Below, one piece after another: positions 35,198-61,300 of a DNA stretch of 64,000 bases (positions within the stretch are counted from its first letter, which is position 1; the number at the start of each line of letters is the position of its first letter). The translations under genes and the position numbers were made by a program. The notes beneath the pieces were generated by a model that did no database searches, was not told the DNA's origin, and saw nothing but the letters and a program-made list of their open reading frames with translations. The stretch is taken from the NCBI GenBank assembly GCA_964576525.1, contig CAZNVH010000041.1, positions 7,326 to 71,325 on the forward strand, written 5' to 3'. This DNA comes from an uncultured Enterobacteriaceae bacterium. GTDB lineage: Bacteria; Pseudomonadota; Gammaproteobacteria; Burkholderiales; SG8-39.

Positions 35198-36132
35198 AGT
35201 TTCGCCCGGTCCGGGGCGAGCACCACGCCTTTCTCGCAGATGATGCCGGTGATCAGCTCGGCGGGCGTGACGTCGAACGCCGGATTGCGTACCTTGACGC
35301 CCTCGGGCGCCCAGCGCATGCCGCGGTAGCCGGTGACCTCGGCCGCCGGGCGCTCCTCGATCGGGATGTGCGTCCCGTCCGGGATCTTCGGATCGAAGCT
35401 CGACAGCGGCGCTGCGACATAGAACGGGATGCCGTGGCGCTTCGCCAGCACGGCGAGGGTATAGGTACCGATCTTGTTCGCGACGTCGCCGTTCGCGGCG
35501 ATGCGGTCGGCGCCGACCACGACCACGTCCACCTCGCCGCGGCTCATCAGGTGGCCGGCCATGCTGTCGGTGATCAGTGTGCACGGAATGCCTTCCTGCA
35601 CCATCTCGTAGGCGGTGAGCCGCGCGCCCTGCAGGTACGGCCGTGTTTCGCACGCGAGCACGGAAATGGATTTACTTTTTGAAGATCTAATAACTCCCAA
35701 AGCTGTTCCATACCCTGCCGTCGCCAGCGCGCCGGCGTTGCAATGGGTCATGACGCGCGCCTTGTTCGGAATCAACTCGGCGCCGAGCCTGCCCATGGCG
35801 TGATTCGCTGCAAGATCCTCGGCGAAGATCGCCTCGGCCTCGGCTTTCAGGTCCTTGGCTTTCTTCATCCGGTCCAGCGCCCAGAACAGGTTGACCGCCG
35901 TGGGGCGGCTCTTGGCCAGGACCTCGAAGGAGGAAGGAGATCCTTTGTCCAGGGCCACGCCGAAAGCCGCGGCGCAGCCGATCGCCGGCGCTCCGCGTAC
36001 CACCATGTCGCGGATCGCCTGCGCGACTTCCGCGGCGCCGCGGCAGGTCACGTAGACGGTCTGGTCGGGCAGCAGCCGCTGGTCGAGGAGATCCAGGCGG
36101 TCGCCGTACCAGCGGATCGGCTCGACCGTCAT
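35170..36132 (-). CDS. mtnA: S-methyl-5-thioribose-1-phosphate isomerase
   Basis: [68 protein letters not shown]. Confidence 0.94.
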
Positions 36133-38099
36133 TAGACGACGCGCTCGTTGCCGCCGTCGACCGGCACCTGGGCGGCGGTGGTCTTGGCGAAGAGCGGCCC
36201 GCACATTTCGGCGGCGAGCTCGGCGACGTCTTTCGACGCCACCTCGGTCTTGAGCAGGTTCTTCCTGCGGTACTGCTCGACGCTCAGGTTGTAGGCCTTG
36301 GCGCGCGCCGCGAGAAGCTCCTCGGTCCACAGCCCGGTGTCGTACACCGCGTCGGGGTGCAGCGAGTTGATGCGGATGCCGTCCTTGGCCCATTCCAGCG
36401 CGGCGACCCGCGCGACCTGGTTGAGCGCTGCTTTGGATGCCGAATAGGCGCCAGCCCCCGGCCCGGGCGCCGGCACGTTGCGCGAGCCGATCACCACGAT
36501 GCGCCCGCCGTGCGGCGCGAGCTTGAGCAGCGGATGACACAGCTGCAGCAGGCGCAGCGGCGCGTCCAGGTTGACGGCCATGGTCTGCCGCCAGGTGTCG
36601 AGGGCGATGTCCTGGACCGGCTGGGAGGAGGGGAAGATCCCGGCGTTGAGCACCAGCATGTCGAGCCCGCCGAAGCGCTGCACGGCCTTTTCCAGGGAAT
36701 CGTTGAGCGCGCCAGAATCCGTGAGATCGCAAGCCAGGCCGAGAAACGCGGGATCGGCACACTGCGTTTCTATGGCGGGATTGCGATCCAGGCCGACGAC
36801 CGCCGCTCCGCGCCGGAGAAACGCCTCCACGCACGCCTTGCCGATGCCCGAGGCGGCGCCGGTCACCAGGGCGACTTCGCCGGCGAACGCCGGCGGCGGG
36901 CCTGCTTTGCGCTTGGCCTGCTCGAGCTGCCAGTACTCGACGTCGAAGAGGTGCTTTTCGTCCACGGCGCGCCAGCCGCCGAGCGCCTCGGCGCGCAGGA
37001 TGACGTCGATGCTGTGGTCGTACAGCTCCTCGATGATCGTGGTCTCCCGCGCGCTGCGGCCGACGGCGGCGAGGCCGAGCTGCGGATCGAGCACGACCCG
37101 CGGCGCGGCGTCGAGCATTGCCTTCGGCTCGCCGGCGCCCTTGGCGTGGCGCTGGAAATACTGACGATAACTCTTGGCGTAGGCCGCCACGTCGCGCCCG
37201 AGCATCGGCGCCGGCTTGGTGAACAGCAGGTGATCCGGCGTCGCCGGGCCCTGCTGCGCGAGCTTCTGCAGGTCCGGGCGTTGGGCGAAGGCGAGGAATT
37301 TGTCGCTGCTACTGACCCGCATGAGCATCGGTACCCCGGCCTGCTCCGAAATCGCTCGCCTGAGGCTCGCGACGTCCTCGTTCTTCGGCGCCGTCGCCGG
37401 TTTCGGAGAAAACGCGAGCTGCCAAGCTTTTTTCTTCCCCAGGTACTCCTCGGCCATCGACACCAGCTCGATCATGCGCTCATAGGATTCGCGCGCCTCG
37501 GCGCCGAAGGAAAAGATGCCGTGCGACAGCAGCACCATGCCGACGGTGTGCTTTCCCGCCTGCTTCGGAAACTCGCGCGCGCAGCGCGCGGCGAGCTCGA
37601 AGCCTGCCATGACGTAGGGGATGACGACCACCCGCTCGCCATAGATCTCGCGGATGCGCTTCTCGCCCTGCGGCGCGTTGGAGATCGCCAGCATCGCGTC
37701 GGCGTGCGTGTGGTCGACGTAGCGGTGCGGCAGGATTGCGTGCAGGATGGTCTCGACCGAGGGCGAGGGCGCGCCGGCGCGCAGCACGTGCGTGTTCAGC
37801 TCGTTCAGCATCTGCGCGTCGGAGAGCGACGGCAGGCGCGCGAGCTTCTGCATGGCGGCGAGCGAGACCGGGGTGAAGCCGGCCGGCTCGATGGTCTCGA
37901 GGTCCGAGCCGCTGCCCTTGACGTAGAGCACCTCGCGCTCCTCGCCGAACAGGTCCTTCTCGCGCAGCTTGACCGAAGTGTTGCCGCCGCCATGCAAGAC
38001 GAGCGCTCGGTCGCGTCCGAGCAGGCGCGAGGTGTAGACGCGCGGCCCGAGCAGGCCGTCGAACTGCGCCGCTTCGGCGTCGCTCCAGCGACTTTTCAT
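36132..38099 (-). CDS. Bifunctional class II aldolase / short-chain dehydrogenase (RhaD-ADH/YuxG-like fusion)
   Basis: [15 protein letters not shown] and HG metal ligands; C-terminal [19 protein letters not shown]. Confidence 0.9.
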
Positions 38100-38122
38100 G
38101 CCGCGATTATACTTTTCGCGCC

Positions 38123-38539
38123 ATGCTGCGAATTGAGCTTCTGTCCTGGGAAGGCGCGCGCGTCCATGCGAGCCTGATCCGTTTCACCGTGTTCGTGGAA
38201 GAGCAGGGCGTGCCGCGCGAGATCGAGCTCGACGAGCAGGATGCGGTTTCGGTTCATGGGGTGGTGTTCGATCGGGAGAAGGCCGTGGCGACCGGCCGGC
38301 TGCTGCCCGACGGCCACATCGGCCGGATGGCGGTCCTCAAGGAGTGGCGCGGCCGCGGCGTGGGCGGGCTGATGCTGAAAAGCCTCATGCAGCGCGCCAA
38401 GGAGCGCGGCGACGCCGAGGTGGTCCTTTCGGCGCAAGTCCATGCCAGGGCCTTCTACCGGGCGCACGGCTTCGCGGAGGAGGGGGCCGAATACATCGAA
38501 GCGGGAATTCCGCATCAGACCATGAAGCACCGGTTCTAG
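38123..38539 (+). CDS. GNAT family N-acetyltransferase
   Basis: FVEEQGVP, IGRMAVLKEWRGRGVG, FYRAHGF, IPHQTM. Confidence 0.9.
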   Translation: MLRIELLSWEGARVHASLIRFTVFVEEQGVPREIELDEQDAVSVHGVVFDREKAVATGRLLPDGHIGRMAVLKEWRGRGVGGLMLKSLMQRAKERGDAEVVLSAQVHARAFYRAHGFAEEGAEYIEAGIPHQTMKHRF

Positions 38540-39195
38540 AACTCGTAGTGCAGGGTATCGCCCGGGGCACCGTCCGGGGCGAAAACGCGCTCGGCATAGC
38601 GGGTCCGCAGACCCTTGAGCAGCACGGTCGAGCAGCGCGTGCCGTAGGCCGGGCTGAGGATGCGCGCCGGCGCGAGCGCCCCGAACAGGGTCTCGACCGC
38701 GGGCGCTTGCTCGAGGATCTCCCGAAAGCGCGTCTTGGCGTCATCGACCTCTGGGGCATCGAGCAGCGTGTTGCCCAGGCCGTAGATCCCGGGCCCCAGC
38801 CGCCGCGGCGGACCGTCGCGGTTCGACATCGACCAGAGCTCCTCGCCGTCGCTCACCAGCAGATTGAAGCCGCTGTATTGGTCTGCCTTTATTTGCCGGA
38901 GATGCGCAGCCGGCTTTTCATTCCCATCCAGAAAGCTCGTCACCAGCGCCCCGCGCGACTCGGCGGCGCGCGCTTCATGGGCGCCGCGATAGTTGGTCAC
39001 CGCGGCAAATCTTCCCGAGCGGGAAATACCCATCCAGGTGCCGCCCGCCTCGAGGTCCCGCCCGGCGAGGATTTCCGGGTGGTCGGCCCAGAAGGCCGCC
39101 GGGGCGGCGGGACGGGCGTGGAACTCGTCGCGGTTCGCCGCGACGATCAACGGAAAATCAGGACGAGTGCGCCAGGCGAGAACGATCAGGCACAT
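38536..39195 (-). CDS. NRDE/TANGO2 family protein
   Basis: MCLI start, [29 protein letters not shown]. Confidence 0.92.
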
Positions 39196-40072
39196 TCCGG
39201 CTCTTCAGCTGCTGGTAAAGCTGGAACGCCTGCTGCGGCTTCTCCTTGCGGTGGACCACCGCGCCGACCGCCTGGATCATCGCCACCGGGTCGTCGGACT
39301 GGAAGATGTTGCGCCCCATGTCGACGCCGGCCGCGCCCTGGTCGAGCGCCTTGTACGCCATGGTCAGGGCGTCGAGCTCCGGGAGCTTCTTGCCGCCGGC
39401 GATCACGATCGGCACCGGGCAGCCGGCGACCACGCGCTCGAAGCCTTCCTCGATGAAGTAGCTCTTGACGTAGTGCGCGCCGAGCTCGGCGGCGATGCGC
39501 GTGGCGAGGCCGAAGTAGCGCTCGTCGCGCTTCATCTCGGCGCCGACGCCGGTGACGGCCATGGTCGGGATGCCGTAGCGGTTGCCGCTGTCGATGAGCT
39601 GCACCAGGTTCTTGATCGACTGGTGCTCGTATTCGGCGCCGATGTAGATCTGCGTGGTGATGGCGCAGGCGTTGAGGCGGATGGCGTCCTCGATGTCCAC
39701 CGCGATCAGCTCGCGCGACAGCTCGGTCAGGATGCTCTGGCCGCCCGAGCAGCGCAGGACCAGCGCGTTGGTGGAGGAGGGGGGGATCACCGAGCGCAGC
39801 GCGCCGCGGGTGCACATCAGCACGTCGGCGTAGGGGATGAGCGGCACGATGTTGAGGTCCATGCGCTCGAGGCCGGTGGTCGGCCCCTGGAAGTAGCCGT
39901 GGTCGAAGGCGAGCATCACGGTCTTGCCCGAGGCCGGGTTGAAGATGCGCGCCAGGCGGTTCTGCATTCCCCAGTCGAGCGCGCCGCCGCCCTTCACGAA
40001 GAAGGGATGGTTGACCTGCGGTACGCCGATGCCGAAGTCCTTGCCTTCTCGGATGTCGTCTTTATCGGCCAT
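39158..40072 (-). CDS. lsrF: LsrF-type thiolase (class I DhnA aldolase fold)
   Basis: [57 protein letters not shown]. Confidence 0.88.
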
Positions 40073-44465: not shown

Positions 44466-45770
44466 ATGAGGAGATACCGGGACGACCCGGGCGCGCTGCA
44501 GGCGCTGGTAGAAGCCGACCGGGTGCACCGCGACGTCTATATCGACGCGGAAGTCTTCCAGCTCGAGATGGAACGCCTGTGGGCGCGGACCTGGATCTAT
44601 GTCGGCCACGAAAGTCAGGTGCCGCAGCCCGGCGACTACATCACCGCCGACATCGCGGCGAAACCGGTGATCGTAGTGCGCCATACCGACGGCAAGGTGC
44701 GCGTGCTGATGAACCGCTGCGCCCACAAGGGCACCAAGGTCGTGGGAGACCTCGTGGGCAATACCGGCAAGACGTTCCGTTGCCCGTACCACGCGTGGAC
44801 TTACCGTACGGACGGTTCCCTCCTGCAGGTTCCGCTCAAGGGCGGTTATGAAGGAACCCGGGTCTACGAAACCGAGGCCGGTCGTGGCCTGGCGCGCGTC
44901 ACCCACGAGACCTATCGCGGGTTCGTGTTCGCCCGCCTCGCCCCCGGCCCGGGGTTCCGCGAGTACTTCGGCGATTCGCTCTCCTCCATCGACAACCTCG
45001 CCGATCGCTCGCCGGAGGGCGAGCTCGAGATCACCGGCGGCTGCCTGCGCTACCTGCACAACTGCAACTGGAAGATGTTCGTCGAGAACCTGAACGACAT
45101 GATGCACCCGATGATCGTGCACGCCTCCTCCGCCGGCACTGCGAAACGGCTGTGGGAAGGCCAGCCGGCGGACCGTCCCAAGCCGATGGCGGTCGAGCAG
45201 TACGCGCCCTTTGCCAACGACTACAAGTTCTTCGATGACATGGGGGTGCGCGTTTACCCGCACGGCCACGGCTTTTCCGGGGTGAATTTCTCGATCCATT
45301 CTTCGTACTCGGCGATCCCGGACTACGAGGAGGCGATGAAGCGCGCCTACGGCGCGGAGCGTGCGCAGCAGATCCTGGGCACGGTGCGCCACAACACCGT
45401 CTACTACCCCAGCCTCACCATCAAGGGCGCGATCCAGTCGATCCGGGTGGTGCGGCCGCTTGCCGCCGACAAGACGCTGATCGAGTCCTGGACTTTCCGC
45501 CTCAAGGGCGCGCCCGACAAGCTGCTCGAGCGCACGGTGATGTACAACCGGCTGATCAACTCACCCATGTCGGTGGTCGGCCACGACGACCTGCACTGCT
45601 ACCGCTCGGCGCAGGAAGGCCTCGCCGCCCCTGGGAATGAATGGGTGAGCCTTCACCGGAATTTTAATGAAAGTGAATTGAACGAAAAAGAACTCATCTG
45701 CAACGGCACCAGCGATATCTCCATGCGCAACCAGTTCCGCGCCTGGAGGGAATTCATGGCGGCCGGATGA
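44466..45770 (+). CDS. Rieske aromatic ring-hydroxylating oxygenase alpha subunit
   Basis: Rieske ligands CAH..CPYH; mononuclear Fe motif NLNDMMHPMIVH; distal Asp in GHDD. Confidence 0.92.
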   Translation: MRRYRDDPGALQALVEADRVHRDVYIDAEVFQLEMERLWARTWIYVGHESQVPQPGDYITADIAAKPVIVVRHTDGKVRVLMNRCAHKGTKVVGDLVGNTGKTFRCPYHAWTYRTDGSLLQVPLKGGYEGTRVYETEAGRGLARVTHETYRGFVFARLAPGPGFREYFGDSLSSIDNLADRSPEGELEITGGCLRYLHNCNWKMFVENLNDMMHPMIVHASSAGTAKRLWEGQPADRPKPMAVEQYAPFANDYKFFDDMGVRVYPHGHGFSGVNFSIHSSYSAIPDYEEAMKRAYGAERAQQILGTVRHNTVYYPSLTIKGAIQSIRVVRPLAADKTLIESWTFRLKGAPDKLLERTVMYNRLINSPMSVVGHDDLHCYRSAQEGLAAPGNEWVSLHRNFNESELNEKELICNGTSDISMRNQFRAWREFMAAG

Positions 45771-46240
45771 GCGAAGCGGACCTGATTCGCTTCGTCCTGC
45801 GCGAGGCGCGCCTGATCGACGAGAAGCGCTTCGACGAGTGGTACGAGCTGTTCGCCGACGACGCCTATTACTGGGTTCCGATCGCTCCCGGGCAGAGCGA
45901 TCCGCTGGGCCACAACTCGCTCGCCTACGAGGACAAGTTCCTGCTCAAGCTGCGCATCGAGCGGCTGAAGCAGCCGAACGCCTTTTCGCAGAAACCGGCG
46001 AGCCGCTGCCAGCACCTGCTGCAGACCCCGGAGCTGGAGAAGTCCGACGCGGCGCGCGGCGAGTACCTGATGCGCACGCCGTTCATCTATACCGAGACCC
46101 GCGGCGACGATTCGCAGCGCTATGCCGCAACCGCCTGGCACACGTTGGTTACTTCAGACGCCGGGCTGCGCATCCGCCTGAAGCGCGTGGACCTGCTGAA
46201 CTGCGACGCCGCCCTGCCCTCGATCCAGCTTTTCCTGTGA
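45767..46240 (+). CDS. Ring-hydroxylating oxygenase beta subunit
   Basis: EARLIDE.RFDEW, YYWVP, KRVDLLN; ATGA overlap with alpha. Confidence 0.9.
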   Translation: MSEADLIRFVLREARLIDEKRFDEWYELFADDAYYWVPIAPGQSDPLGHNSLAYEDKFLLKLRIERLKQPNAFSQKPASRCQHLLQTPELEKSDAARGEYLMRTPFIYTETRGDDSQRYAATAWHTLVTSDAGLRIRLKRVDLLNCDAALPSIQLFL

Positions 46241-46953
46241 GCGCGGCGCTCGTCACCGGCGGCAGCGCGGGCATCGGGTTGGCGGTCGTGCAACGGCTGC
46301 TGGATTCCAATGTTGAGGTTTTTTCGTTGGACGTGCAGCCGCCGCCGGCAGCGCATCAAAAGCTGAATTACGTGAAGGTGGATCTCACCGACACCGCCGC
46401 GACGAGAAAAGTCTGCGAAGACCTCAGGAACCGCAGGATCACCACGTTGATCCACAACGCCGGGACAATCCGCCCTGCTCTCCTGCCCGACGTCAAGCTC
46501 GAGGACTTCGAGGCGCTGGTCCACCTGCACCTTTCGGCGGCGATCCTGCTGCTGCAGGCGACGCTGCCGGCGATGAAGGCCGCGGGCTACGGCCGCGTGG
46601 TGCTGGTGTCCTCCCGGGCGGTGCTCGGCCTGCCCACGCGCACGTCGTACTCGGCGACCAAAGCCGGCATCCTCGGGATGGCGCGCACCTGGGCGCTCGA
46701 GCTCGCGCCGCAGGGGATCACGGTCAACGTGGTGGCGCCGGGGCCGATCGAGACCGACAACTTCCACAGCATCGTGCCGCGCGGCAGTCCCCAGGTCGAG
46801 CGCATCGCGCAGGGCATCCCGGTGAAGCGGTTGGGCCAGCCGGCCGACGTGGCGCGCGCGGTGCTGTTCTTCGCCGACCGGGAAAACAGCTTTGTGACCG
46901 GCCAGGTGCTGTACGTCTGCGGCGGCACCAGCGTCGGCAGCCTGGCGCTCTAG
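46237..46953 (+). CDS. Short-chain dehydrogenase/reductase
   Basis: GTG start; TGGSAGIG, HNAG, YSATK. Confidence 0.9.
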   Translation: MSAALVTGGSAGIGLAVVQRLLDSNVEVFSLDVQPPPAAHQKLNYVKVDLTDTAATRKVCEDLRNRRITTLIHNAGTIRPALLPDVKLEDFEALVHLHLSAAILLLQATLPAMKAAGYGRVVLVSSRAVLGLPTRTSYSATKAGILGMARTWALELAPQGITVNVVAPGPIETDNFHSIVPRGSPQVERIAQGIPVKRLGQPADVARAVLFFADRENSFVTGQVLYVCGGTSVGSLAL

Positions 46954-46958
46954 GCCGA

Positions 46959-48620
<1,662 letters not shown>

Positions 48621-58997: not shown

Positions 58998-59099
58998 CTC
59001 TAACCTGCTATTTTACCGTAGGAATTACCGCTAATGACTATAAACGTCGGCTAAGCCTTCAGCTTTCATATTGACTGTCCGGACGGTATCGCCGTCACA

Positions 59100-59759
59100 T
59101 TAGAGCCCTTTGGATCGGTTCGTTCGCCATTCACTCCGACAGTCCTCATGATTTGAGAATGCGTATTGGAAAAGTAGTGCTCCCATCGCTCCTTTGCCGA
59201 GATCAGACACACCTACGGAAAGCCGAACCGTGCGCAGCTTGTCCGGCAACCGATGTCGATGTTCCTCTACCCACATCGCAACAAGCCTTCCATTCTGTTC
59301 CATGACCGCCCTGTACCATTCTTTCGGAGGTATGGGCTGTCGCACATCTCTATTCGGTTCAAACCCGATCTGCGGTTTGCCATATTTCTGCGAAAGGACT
59401 CGTACGGTTTCCTCAAATTCATGCTCGATGGAAGACGCAAAGAACAGCTTTCCTTCTGCGAGGATAAAGCAGAGCCCGGATTCCTTCGAAAAGAAGAGTG
59501 TTAGCGATTGAATACTCTCGTTGATGATCGGCGGTTGTTGGACCGTCAACGCGTCCTTACTGTCGCGGACACCCTTAGAGATCTTTTTCGCCGCCTCCCG
59601 AGTCATCCCCTGGTCGTATCCGAACGGTCCTGCCACTGATATCGCGGAGTACCCAAGCAAAGCAGTTGTAGCCACGGTCACGAATACATGAATGAGTAAA
59701 CGATGCTCTTTGGGGGGCGGCCCGACGCGCTGCTTACGCAGCTTCCCTCTCAGTTTCAC
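59100..59759 (-). CDS. Hypothetical exported protein (low-GC island)
   Basis: GTG overlaps upstream TGA; hydrophobic signal-like stretch ending SVA-GPFG; 219 aa. Confidence 0.6.
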   Translation of the reverse strand: MKLRGKLRKQRVGPPPKEHRLLIHVFVTVATTALLGYSAISVAGPFGYDQGMTREAAKKISKGVRDSKDALTVQQPPIINESIQSLTLFFSKESGLCFILAEGKLFFASSIEHEFEETVRVLSQKYGKPQIGFEPNRDVRQPIPPKEWYRAVMEQNGRLVAMWVEEHRHRLPDKLRTVRLSVGVSDLGKGAMGALLFQYAFSNHEDCRSEWRTNRSKGL

Positions 59760-59959
59760 TTGTGCTTCCAGTAATTGATTGTGTAAGCCAGCGTAGTGGC
59801 CGCTACGGAAGCCAGCATGATTACTGAGACAGCCACCGAGAACCAATACAGCGTGGATAGCCCAAAGTGCTCCGCAGCACCCAAGAAACCCAACCCGACG
59901 ACTAAACCCCACAGGTTCTGATTCAGATGGATCTTGAAGTGCTCGTCAAGGCTTGCCAT
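59756..59959 (-). CDS. Small two-TM hypothetical protein (67 aa)
   Basis: AGGAG SD before ATG; two hydrophobic segments. Confidence 0.6.
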   Translation of the reverse strand: MASLDEHFKIHLNQNLWGLVVGLGFLGAAEHFGLSTLYWFSVAVSVIMLASVAATTLAYTINYWKHK

Positions 59960-60038
59960 TTCGACTCCTAAACGGATGCATAACTAAACACGTGTCGGAC
60001 CATTGTTGTTCTGCTGATTGTCGACGCCGGTAGTGGCG

Positions 60039-60611
60039 TTACGTGATGTACTCCATGTCGTACTGAAGCTTCTTCCCACGACAACGTGGACAGAACAACG
60101 CTCGGCTCCTTGTGAGCGTTCCTCCGCATTTGCAGCCCCCGGCCACCACATCGGGTGACGAATTCGCGAGCGCGATAAACGTCCCGCAAGATTCGCACTG
60201 ATATCCAGTGGTACTCGTTTCGCCGTGAACAAAGGAGACGATTTCAGCAGAGTAGCCACATTCCAAGCAGGAAATTGTCCCGGCACCTCCTATGAATTGA
60301 AAGAAGACCTCCGATCGTCTCGCGTCTTCGCCGTCTGTACTGCTACGCCGTGTTCGGAGTTCTTCTCGTACTGCCCCCGGGAGAAAAATCGGCCAAAGCA
60401 AAATAACCCCTAGCGATAGCAACGTTCCGAACAACAGGAGTCTTGATTTTGAAAGTGCCGGACGGCCGTAATAGGCGTTTAGGAGATTCAATCCACGAGC
60501 ATCCGCCGCCGCTTCGGACACTTTCCTACGAAGTGGCCCTGCAGCAAGCAAAGCCAGCCCCACGAGAACATAGAGTGCTAGGCCAGCCAATAGTGCCCCG
60601 CCGATATACAT
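60039..60611 (-). CDS. Hypothetical membrane protein with Cys-rich double zinc-ribbon C-terminus
   Basis: Two TM helices, then CLEC, CESC, CKC, CPRC. Confidence 0.65.
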   Translation of the reverse strand: MYIGGALLAGLALYVLVGLALLAAGPLRRKVSEAAADARGLNLLNAYYGRPALSKSRLLLFGTLLSLGVILLWPIFLPGAVREELRTRRSSTDGEDARRSEVFFQFIGGAGTISCLECGYSAEIVSFVHGETSTTGYQCESCGTFIALANSSPDVVAGGCKCGGTLTRSRALFCPRCRGKKLQYDMEYIT

Positions 60612-61028
60612 TCAATGCATGCTTTGCGGCGTTAGATCAAGACTTAGTAGCGCTCTCGCATTTCTCGAACGAAGCACACGAGCCCCTACTCATGGAGTTT
60701 CGCCTAGTCGAAAAGTTTGCTTCGACGTCCTAGCTCAAACTTTCCACCGCTTGCCGCAGGGAATCCTACGCCGGTTGCCTCATAGACCTTACTGATTAAG
60801 TTTCGAAGCTGCTTTCTGGCAAATTCCTCTGCCAACTGAGGTGCTAACACCGACGCATTGTGCTCAACTTCAAAAGAAGCGGCTGTTGATTTGGCGGCGA
60901 ACTGAATAGCCAAAGATGCAATAGCATGCTCCCGCCTACTGCACCTGCTCTTCCGGCCCATTAACTTCCCCCGAACTTGTTGGAGTTTTGGTATTAAAGC
61001 AACCGGAGTGTTTGACCGCGAGGCGTTT

Positions 61029-61068
61029 AAAAAAGTTGCACCCGTAGTCTTCTAAGAAAAGGTGCGAC
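61029..61068 (-). terminator. Terminator-like hairpin after glutaredoxin gene
   Basis: GTCGCACC..GGTGCAAC (7/8 bp) then TTTTTT on minus strand; long 18-nt loop. Confidence 0.35.
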
Positions 61069-61069
61069 G

Positions 61070-61300
61070 TTAGCCAATTCCCGTCGCAATCTTTAACGCT
61101 GATTTGTCGAGATGATAGTGGCAAATCTCGTTCCCTTGCGCGTCGACAAGGACTGGAACCAGATGTCCATATTCTTTCTTAAGCGCAAGATCCGAATCGA
61201 CGTCGATCTCCTCGAAATCGACCCCGAGCGAGCGCAGCGCCTGCGCCATCTCCTCGCAGAGGTGGCAGCGGCTGCGCCCGTACAGCTTAACCTTTGTCAG
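61070..61300 (-). CDS. Glutaredoxin-like protein (DUF836 type), absent from ORF track; CTG start
   Basis: Manual translation LTKVKLYGRSRCHLCEEMAQAL..EEIDVDSD..YGHLVPVL..EICHYHLD; usual neighbour of mucD. Confidence 0.85.
   Translation of the reverse strand: MTKVKLYGRSRCHLCEEMAQALRSLGVDFEEIDVDSDLALKKEYGHLVPVLVDAQGNEICHYHLDKSALKIATGIG

Follow-up and report, generated by a model that had tools for sequence, protein, structure and literature searches.

What does LsrF do in a stretch of DNA that carries none of its usual partner genes? To our knowledge, this enzyme is known only for destroying autoinducer-2 (AI-2), a signal used in quorum sensing. The window analysed here, a 64,000-nucleotide (64-kb) stretch of contig CAZNVH010000041.1 (positions 7,326 to 71,325; assembly GCA_964576525.1) deposited as an uncultured Enterobacteriaceae bacterium and placed by GTDB in the Burkholderiales (SG8-39), encodes an LsrF ortholog close to mtnA and to a gene for an aldolase-dehydrogenase fusion protein. 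We tentatively suggest that LsrF acts here outside quorum sensing, as the last enzyme of a coenzyme A (CoA)-dependent variant of the dihydroxyacetone phosphate (DHAP) shunt that would serve the 5-deoxyribose moiety of 5′-deoxyadenosine and possibly that of 5′-methylthioadenosine (MTA) too. Insofar as sequence comparison can speak to it, the salvage-route interpretation put forward in a first-pass annotation of the locus is supported.

Genes were called from open reading frames (ORFs), third-position guanine-cytosine (GC) content and family searches (NCBIfam, TIGRFAM, Pfam), which gave the following map of the locus:

39158-40072, minus strand: lsrF ortholog, 304 amino acids (aa), starts MADKDD; NF006081 499 bits (cut-off 297)
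38536-39195, minus strand: NRDE/TANGO2-family gene, 219 aa, starts MCLIVLAW; PF05742 181 bits
38123-38539, plus strand: GNAT acetyltransferase gene, 138 aa; PF13673 and PF00583, frame and third-position GC checked
36132-38099, minus strand: class II aldolase–short-chain dehydrogenase/reductase (SDR) fusion gene (RhaEW-like), 655 aa; NF006196 1015 bits (cut-off 831), PF00596 and PF00106
35170-36132, minus strand: mtnA (S-methyl-5-thioribose-1-phosphate / 5-deoxyribose-1-phosphate isomerase), 320 aa; TIGR00512 418.9 bits (cut-off 279), PF01008

The first-pass annotation had placed lsrF about 1 kb upstream of the fusion gene and mtnA on the same strand, with the GNAT and NRDE genes intervening and no lsrK, lsrG, lsrR or lsrACDB in the window, and all of this holds. 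We measured 1058 bp between the stop of lsrF and the start of the fusion gene, and tblastn with the E. coli K-12 proteins LsrK and LsrR as well as LsrA, LsrC, LsrD, LsrB and LsrG against the 64-kb window returned no match at E<1e-3. What the map adds is orientation: the GNAT gene is antisense, and the NRDE gene is co-oriented with lsrF, its start overlapping the lsrF 3′ end by 38 nt, so that the locus consists of two minus-strand gene pairs split by one gene on the opposite strand. GNAT converges on NRDE (their stops overlap by 4 nt), and its start codon diverges from that of the fusion at a distance of 23 nt. The mtnA ATG overlaps the TAA of the fusion gene, as read in the junction sequence TAATG, i.e. 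the two genes are translationally coupled. On the minus strand, a TATAAT hexamer precedes the ATG of the fusion gene by 7 nt and might mark a leaderless mRNA; it is without a credible −35 element and was not relied on.

Is the gene really lsrF? The window protein scored 499.4 bits against NF006081 over profile positions 1-290 of 291, aligned end to end with E. coli LsrF in the same residue numbering (68.5% identity over 286 aa in tblastn) and matched the E. coli LsrF structures PDB 3gkf/4p2v at E=3e-137. In E. coli LsrF, Diaz et al. assigned catalytic roles or positions close by to Lys203, Asp57, Asp251 and Tyr205, and phosphate binding to His58, Arg254 and Gly226/227/253 (PMC2728841). D57, H58, K203, Y205, G226, G227, D251, G253 and R254 are invariant, under the same numbering, in the window LsrF and 83 aligned sequences; the residues kept include Lys203, which forms the Schiff base in the E. 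coli enzyme, and Asp57, its general acid/base. By profile score, alignment and active-site residues, the window gene is a true LsrF ortholog, a predicted member of the family of thiolases acting on 3-hydroxy-5-phosphonooxypentane-2,4-dione (P-HPD). LsrFs linked to the fusion and those of canonical lsr loci are separated at only three positions (4, 112 and 204), all by conservative differences, which speaks for an identical or all but identical substrate in both; the substrate of the window enzyme is thus very probably P-HPD or a near-identical compound.

The closest homologs of the window LsrF come from uncultured Burkholderiales, and thousands of environmental homologs were found; no identical sequence was present in the contig collection searched. 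The top-scoring homolog (P0001), of the E. coli LsrF type and internally duplicated, was dropped as a probable assembly artefact. A midpoint-rooted LsrF tree had the canonical, lsr-linked forms as derived, whereas a neighbour-joining tree rooted on MJ0400 and the T. tenax fructose-1,6-bisphosphate aldolase as outgroups placed the gammaproteobacterial canonical forms at the base; as the rooting differs between methods, we make no claim on the ancestral context of LsrF.

How often, then, does lsrF stand without lsr genes, and in what company? A scan with the LsrF alignment over one genome per species yielded 527 relatives, and the 80 best of them were retained; their loci were sorted by tblastn with the E. 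coli Lsr proteins and the window proteins, within a radius of 10 kb. In 24 canonical loci (Enterobacterales, Pasteurellaceae, Rhodobacter and Cohaesibacter), lsrK and lsrG both adjoin lsrF, and none of them has the fusion or mtnA. Another 58 loci, including L001 and the window itself, are lsr-less, i.e. have neither lsrK nor lsrG within 10 kb of lsrF. The fusion family lies no more than 10 kb from lsrF in 31 of these 58, as opposed to 0 of the 24 canonical loci (Fisher p=7.7e-7). A co-occurrence of lsr-less lsrF with the fusion and mtnA is thus borne out, and in independent arrangements: the pairing of lsrF with the fusion recurs in at least seven gene orders across Beta- and Alphaproteobacteria, the genes often overlapping or lying a few bases apart. 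Both kinds of locus may be found in one organism, as Rhodobacter sp. TJ_12 carries two near-identical LsrF genes, one in a full lsr operon and one without lsr neighbours (L055 and L057).

The Burkholderiales loci are uniform. All 13 that reach beyond NRDE read lsrF-NRDE-(GNAT)-fusion, with mtnA next wherever the contig continues. In 10 related loci GNAT is placed and oriented as in the window, while in L006 it is missing and lsrF, NRDE and the fusion gene are contiguous. Marine Alphaproteobacteria show the orders mtnP-mtnA-fusion-lsrF and mtnA-fusion-lsrF as well as lsrF convergent with the fusion. Among the related clusters, mtnP is present in L017, L018, L024 and L032, and mtnK in L080 and in a plasmid of strain NT-25 described below. 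In a metagenome-assembled genome of Marinosulfonomonas, the fusion gene, an LsrR-like regulator and mtnA-mtnK lie on one side, and a sugar ATP-binding cassette (ABC) transporter, an Rpe-family epimerase and lsrF on the other, a layout that parallels the lsr operon with MtnK and MtnA standing where LsrK and LsrG would. The Burkholderiales LsrFs are sister, at ~80% identity, to those of the alphaproteobacterial mtnP-mtnA-fusion-lsrF group. Between the same two groups the fusions share 37% identity and belong to different NCBIfam equivalogs (NF006196 vs. NF006192), and the MtnA proteins share 42%; the partners are thus not simply co-inherited.

In L020 (7916-13614), L035, L046, L053, L054, L058 and L059, where lsrF converges on the fusion gene, a YghX/dienelactone-hydrolase-like gene and a 387-aa homolog of the PRK07559 '2′-deoxycytidine 5′-triphosphate deaminase' lie upstream of lsrF.

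NRDE directly follows lsrF in all 15 related Burkholderiales loci and is absent beside alphaproteobacterial lsrF. The window NRDE protein has the N-terminal Met-Cys and the NRDE motif (MCLIVLAW...AANRDEF). In eukaryotes, TANGO2 has been connected with the handling of acyl-CoA or haem, and the pairing of an NRDE protein with a CoA-dependent thiolase may be meaningful.

The same question can be asked from the side of the fusion. Comparing the window fusion with an annotated plasmid/chromid collection, we found the best matches, at 41.5% identity and with an SDR motif of the same subfamily, in two cultured strains of Shinella. Here lsrF stands immediately before the fusion gene, which is followed by genes for a sugar ABC transporter, for an FGGY kinase that is no ortholog of LsrK and for a dehydrogenase resembling GlpD/EryB (Shinella sp. 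H4-D48 p1, L084, 8053-17991). In Sagittula sp. MA-2 p3 (L088, 2174-12081), the order transporter-regulator-GlpD-like-FGGY kinase-lsrF is followed by a standalone RhaE-like gene that overlaps lsrF by 4 nt and whose 397-aa product matches fusion residues 14-399 and has no SDR. Both operons look like catabolic loci for a deoxy-sugar or polyol and could also reach P-HPD, e.g. by C4 oxidation of 1-deoxypentulose-5-phosphate. The cultured carriers encountered include Shinella sp. H4-D48, S. zoogloeoides Teo12, Sagittula sp. MA-2 and Rhodobacter capsulatus, the last with an lsr-less lsrF. Two recurrent links emerge, and both are present in the window: that of the fusion with mtnA is general and can stand without lsrF, and that of LsrF with the RhaE-like domain is confined to lsrF genes of lsr-less loci. 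For one Rhizobium fusion, the surroundings are of the glycerol-phosphate kind and include neither mtnA nor lsrF. Plasmid 3 of the arsenite-oxidising bacterium NT-25 (L086, 411-10670) clusters the fusion gene with mtnK, mtnA, a split transketolase gene and genes for a sugar ABC transporter, lacks lsrF over the surrounding 10 kb, and may represent a further variant of 5-deoxyribose/5-methylthioribose (MTR) catabolism.

Which reactions could supply P-HPD at such a locus? 5′-Deoxyadenosine is the product of every radical S-adenosylmethionine (radical-SAM) enzyme and inhibits these enzymes, and its known disposal in bacteria ends in free acetaldehyde. In the route considered here, it would first be converted to 5-deoxyribose-1-phosphate by MtnP, or by MtnN and MtnK (whose genes occur in related clusters), and MtnA would isomerise this to 5-deoxyribulose-1-phosphate. 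The SDR domain of the fusion, dependent on nicotinamide adenine dinucleotide (NAD+), would then oxidise the C4 hydroxyl to give CH3-CO-CHOH-CO-CH2OP, i.e. P-HPD, from which LsrF would form DHAP and acetyl-CoA at the expense of CoA. The identity on which this scheme turns, proposed from the outset, was confirmed by structural derivation: 5-deoxyribulose-1-phosphate is CH2OP-CO-CHOH-CHOH-CH3, and oxidation at C4 yields CH2OP-CO-CHOH-CO-CH3, which, counted from its methyl carbon, is 3-hydroxy-5-phosphonooxypentane-2,4-dione, the LsrF substrate. LsrF would provide a thiolytic alternative to cleavage by the fusion, capturing the acyl group as acetyl-CoA. As the equilibrium of aldol cleavage is unfavourable, which was noted for DrdA (PMC6079011), an oxidative, irreversible route would make sense.

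The fusion comprises a class II aldolase fold at its N-terminus (about aa 1-225), a middle domain and, at its C-terminus, an SDR domain of NAD type (aa 405-655). The latter has the full N-S-Y-K tetrad and an Asp (D438) at the end of β-2, as is typical for oxidative enzymes with a preference for NAD+; its closest resemblance is to secondary-alcohol dehydrogenases of sugars. Among 22 full-length fusion homologs, G414/I419/G420, D438, N510, S539, Y552 and K556 of the SDR are invariant, as are HGGGN-S-K 36-44 (HGGGNTSVK in the window), E116, H130, H132, H193 and TPDH 287-290. We found no catalytic-motif differences between LsrF-linked and unlinked fusions. Against solved structures, the aldolase domain matched only the uncharacterised 3m4r, with no characterised class II aldolase among the matches.

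For the only characterised relative of the fusion, RhaEW, DHAP and lactate were obtained only with NAD+ and no DHAP without it, which its authors took to mean that the aldolase activity depends on the dehydrogenase, the enzyme combining an aldolase with an aldehyde dehydrogenase (PMC3870299). That no DHAP is released without NAD+ fits C4 oxidation ahead of C-C cleavage equally well as the authors' scheme. The main argument that a P-HPD-type intermediate exists is the recurrent presence of LsrF, for which the classical aldolase-then-aldehyde-dehydrogenase scheme provides no substrate. We infer an oxidation by the SDR at C4 of the ketose-1-phosphate (and not of a free aldehyde), the release of P-HPD to LsrF and the formation of acetyl-CoA, and likewise the physiological choice of substrate. 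As for the aldolase-like domain, it could hydrolyse the same β-diketone, epimerise C3 or run the ordinary aldol equilibrium; plausibly, a class II aldolase site could cleave the hydrate of the 4-keto substrate like the 4-hydroxy compound, giving an acid and the DHAP enediolate.

Several observations weigh against this assignment. The published RhaEW scheme yields no P-HPD. Whether or not they are linked to LsrF, the fusions keep the full metal site of the aldolase-like domain, and the fusion may thus cleave its substrate unaided. Pairs of mtnA and fusion without lsrF within 10 kb occur in Ruegeria, Gemmatirosa (Gemmatimonadota) and NT-25 and, judged by coordinates, on several Ensifer and Rhizobium replicons, which means that the fusion can finish the pathway without an adjacent LsrF and that LsrF is not obligatory for the module. 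Shinella and Sagittula have an FGGY kinase and a GlpD-like oxidase as feeders in place of MtnA. Conversely, 27 of the 58 lsr-less loci have no fusion within 10 kb of lsrF, ten of them with lsrF behind a suf operon. In the window itself, the antisense GNAT gene separates lsrF-NRDE from fusion-mtnA, a promoter and terminator scan of the locus gave nothing above shuffled expectation, and mtnP, mtnN and mtnK are absent from the 64 kb.

The ten suf-linked loci, all from marine alphaproteobacterial genomes (L019, L023, L026-L031, L034 and L036), have lsr-less lsrF immediately behind a complete iscR-sufBCDSE-sufT-sufA operon and ahead of a molybdopterin oxidoreductase gene (about 3300-13200 in L019), hinting at a tie to Fe-S assembly and perhaps to radical-SAM cofactors.

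One alternative is a self-sufficient fusion, a possibility that we take seriously but on balance doubt. The aldolase would cleave 5-deoxyribulose-1-phosphate or 5-methylthioribulose-1-phosphate (MTRu-1-P) to DHAP and an aldehyde, the SDR would oxidise the aldehyde to the acid, and LsrF would have a separate role, its adjacency reflecting shared regulation; it might clear phosphorylated 4,5-dihydroxy-2,3-pentanedione (P-DPD) or P-HPD arising from imported or spontaneous DPD, or act on another diketone phosphate. The mtnA-fusion pairs without nearby lsrF, the metal site intact in all fusions, the formation of DHAP and lactate by RhaEW alone (PMC3870299) and the GNAT gene splitting the locus all speak for it. 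It leaves unexplained, however, why at least seven unrelated gene orders place a RhaE-like gene beside lsr-less lsrF and canonical lsr loci never do, and it names no source of LsrF substrate in organisms without lsrK and lsrG.

It is quite unlikely that the same three-enzyme logic serves mainly MTA-derived 5-methylthioribulose-1-phosphate, in which case the products would be DHAP and (methylthio)acetyl-CoA and the purpose sulfur or carbon salvage, not disposal of 5′-deoxyadenosine. Neighbouring genes are annotated as MTA phosphorylase, MTR kinase and MTR-1-phosphate isomerase, and known DHAP-shunt enzymes accept substrates derived from MTA and from 5′-deoxyadenosine about equally (PMC13474568). 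Yet the active site of LsrF is in essence that of the E. coli enzyme, whose substrate is a methyl ketone, and the loci show no downstream gene for a methylthio-acyl product.

We consider it very unlikely that DHAP serves as a carrier in a cycle, with the aldolase condensing a toxic aldehyde (e.g. acetaldehyde) with DHAP, the SDR oxidising C4 and LsrF releasing acyl-CoA and DHAP, for a net conversion of aldehyde, CoA and NAD+ to acyl-CoA and NADH. Such a cycle would make all three catalytic units necessary, would run the aldol reaction in the thermodynamically favoured direction of condensation and would fit the adjacent fusion and lsrF genes in loci without mtnA; but it is a purely deductive scheme for which we know of no precedent, Sagittula has a RhaE-like protein and LsrF without an SDR, and the coupling to mtnA in the window points to a supplied ketose-1-phosphate. 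Ordinary AI-2 processing, with lsrK, lsrG and a transporter encoded elsewhere in the genome, is exceedingly improbable, for although the protein is a high-scoring LsrF equivalog and our search for lsr genes here covers the 64-kb window, lsrK and lsrG lie beside lsrF in 24/24 canonical loci and neither is within 10 kb in 58/58 lsr-less ones, and the conserved neighbours at the present locus are salvage genes.

Of these possibilities, the CoA-dependent ending of 5-deoxyribose salvage is the one that we tentatively favour. It may in turn be one case of something wider, although we regard this extension as speculative and rather doubtful: LsrF would be a general thiolytic end-step of deoxy-sugar and polyol routes that converge on P-HPD, with AI-2 processing as one specialised instance, and RhaE-like/SDR fusions, perhaps RhaEW among them, would not combine an aldolase with an aldehyde dehydrogenase but a ketose-1-phosphate 4-dehydrogenase with a metal-dependent domain for the 2,4-diketone that it produces. 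The feeders would then vary, from MtnP or MtnK with MtnA for 5-deoxyribose, through an FGGY kinase with a GlpD-like oxidase in Shinella and Sagittula, to LsrK with LsrG for DPD.

Is such an ending new? Searchable literature contained nothing relevant on LsrF together with 5-deoxyribose, 5-deoxyribulose, the DHAP shunt, mtnA or TANGO2, and a review of July 2026 lists only two variants of the DHAP shunt, in each of which Ald2 and an unidentified alcohol dehydrogenase come last (PMC13474568). Our proposal thus assembles known enzymes (LsrF, MtnA and a RhaEW-like fusion) into what would be an undescribed CoA-dependent ending for 5-deoxypentose salvage. If true, the C2 piece would go straight to acetyl-CoA, and a universal toxic by-product would be dealt with in a new manner that conserves energy and avoids free aldehyde. 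Many 'AI-2 aldolase/thiolase' genes in bacteria without an lsr system would gain a physiological role. The AI-2 sensing that annotation has systematically led one to infer for Burkholderiales and marine Alphaproteobacteria would have to be corrected. The proposal would also prompt a re-examination of the mechanism of the widespread RhaEW-type fusions and offer a view on how AI-2 degradation relates to sugar salvage.

The remainder of the window (GC ~68%) carries mostly housekeeping genes, including smc, glnD, rpsB-tsf-frr, ppsA, guaBA, ygfZ, mltG, tmk, uvrC, efp, pdxJ, era, rnc and lepA. Beyond lsrF, the window map places yciI on the plus strand and ygfZ on the minus strand. Sequencing runs containing the region originate from freshwater sediment, and part of the locus sequence is present in two apparent metatranscriptome runs. 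Amid the housekeeping genes, 44466-48589 holds a small aromatic-catabolism block (Rieske dioxygenase α/β, an SDR, a 2-keto-4-pentenoate hydratase-like protein and 3-hydroxyanthranilate 3,4-dioxygenase), and two tRNA genes lie at 48424-48620 on the minus strand. Between lepA and a gene for a DegP-family protease, the GC content falls from ~68% to ~59% (59000-61290), possibly marking an inserted element; the island has ORFs of 270 and 190 aa, the shorter one with a hydrophobic N-terminal stretch and four C-x-x-C motifs.

How does the proposed route compare with known systems? The nearest structural relative of the window LsrF outside the LsrF family is ADH synthase MJ0400 of methanogens (128 bits), a 6-deoxy-5-ketofructose-1-phosphate transaldolase that likewise acts on a methyl-ketone deoxy-sugar phosphate, in methanogens derived from 5′-deoxyadenosine salvage (PMC6079011). 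The two differ in that identity is only ~30%, MJ0400 catalyses transaldol transfer rather than CoA thiolysis, and the window LsrF falls below the MJ0400 family cut-offs. The non-phosphorylative L-rhamnose pathway, in which L-2-keto-3-deoxyrhamnonate (L-KDR) 4-dehydrogenase, an SDR, oxidises the C4 hydroxyl and 2,4-diketo-3-deoxyrhamnonate hydrolase cleaves the resulting β-diketone, follows the same oxidise-then-cleave logic but uses unrelated families, an unphosphorylated substrate and hydrolysis instead of thiolysis.

RhaEW (YuxG; rhamnulose-1-phosphate aldolase/lactaldehyde dehydrogenase) shares with the window fusion its three-part architecture, all catalytic motifs, the NAD-dependent SDR and, by prediction, an analogous type of substrate (a deoxy-ketose-1-phosphate). 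The window fusion differs in falling below the RhaEW equivalog cut-off (429.3 bits against TIGR02632, RhaD_aldol-ADH; cut-off 567.75), in belonging to NF006196 and in its linkage to mtnA and lsrF; no rhamnose genes were found nearby or anywhere else in the window. With the lsr operon of E. coli and Salmonella, the window shares the NF006081 equivalog, its active site and presumably the reaction itself, P-HPD and CoA to DHAP and acetyl-CoA. There, however, the LsrF substrate is made by LsrK and LsrG from DPD, whereas the window, where mtnA, the RhaEW-like fusion and TANGO2/NRDE are the neighbours in place of lsrK, lsrG, lsrR and lsrACDB, would arrive at it by oxidation of a 5-deoxypentulose phosphate. 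A further comparison is with the DHAP shunt or 5-deoxyribose disposal pathway (MtnP or MtnN and MtnK, MtnA and Ald2; or DrdK-DrdI-DrdA), with which the proposed route has in common MtnA, MtnP or MtnK in related clusters, the product DHAP and the inputs 5′-deoxyadenosine and MTA. Where the shunt relies on a small FucA-like aldolase (Ald2 or DrdA), the window has the 655-aa RhaE-like fusion and LsrF, and where the shunt yields free acetaldehyde as its second product, the predicted product here is acetyl-CoA (or acetate).

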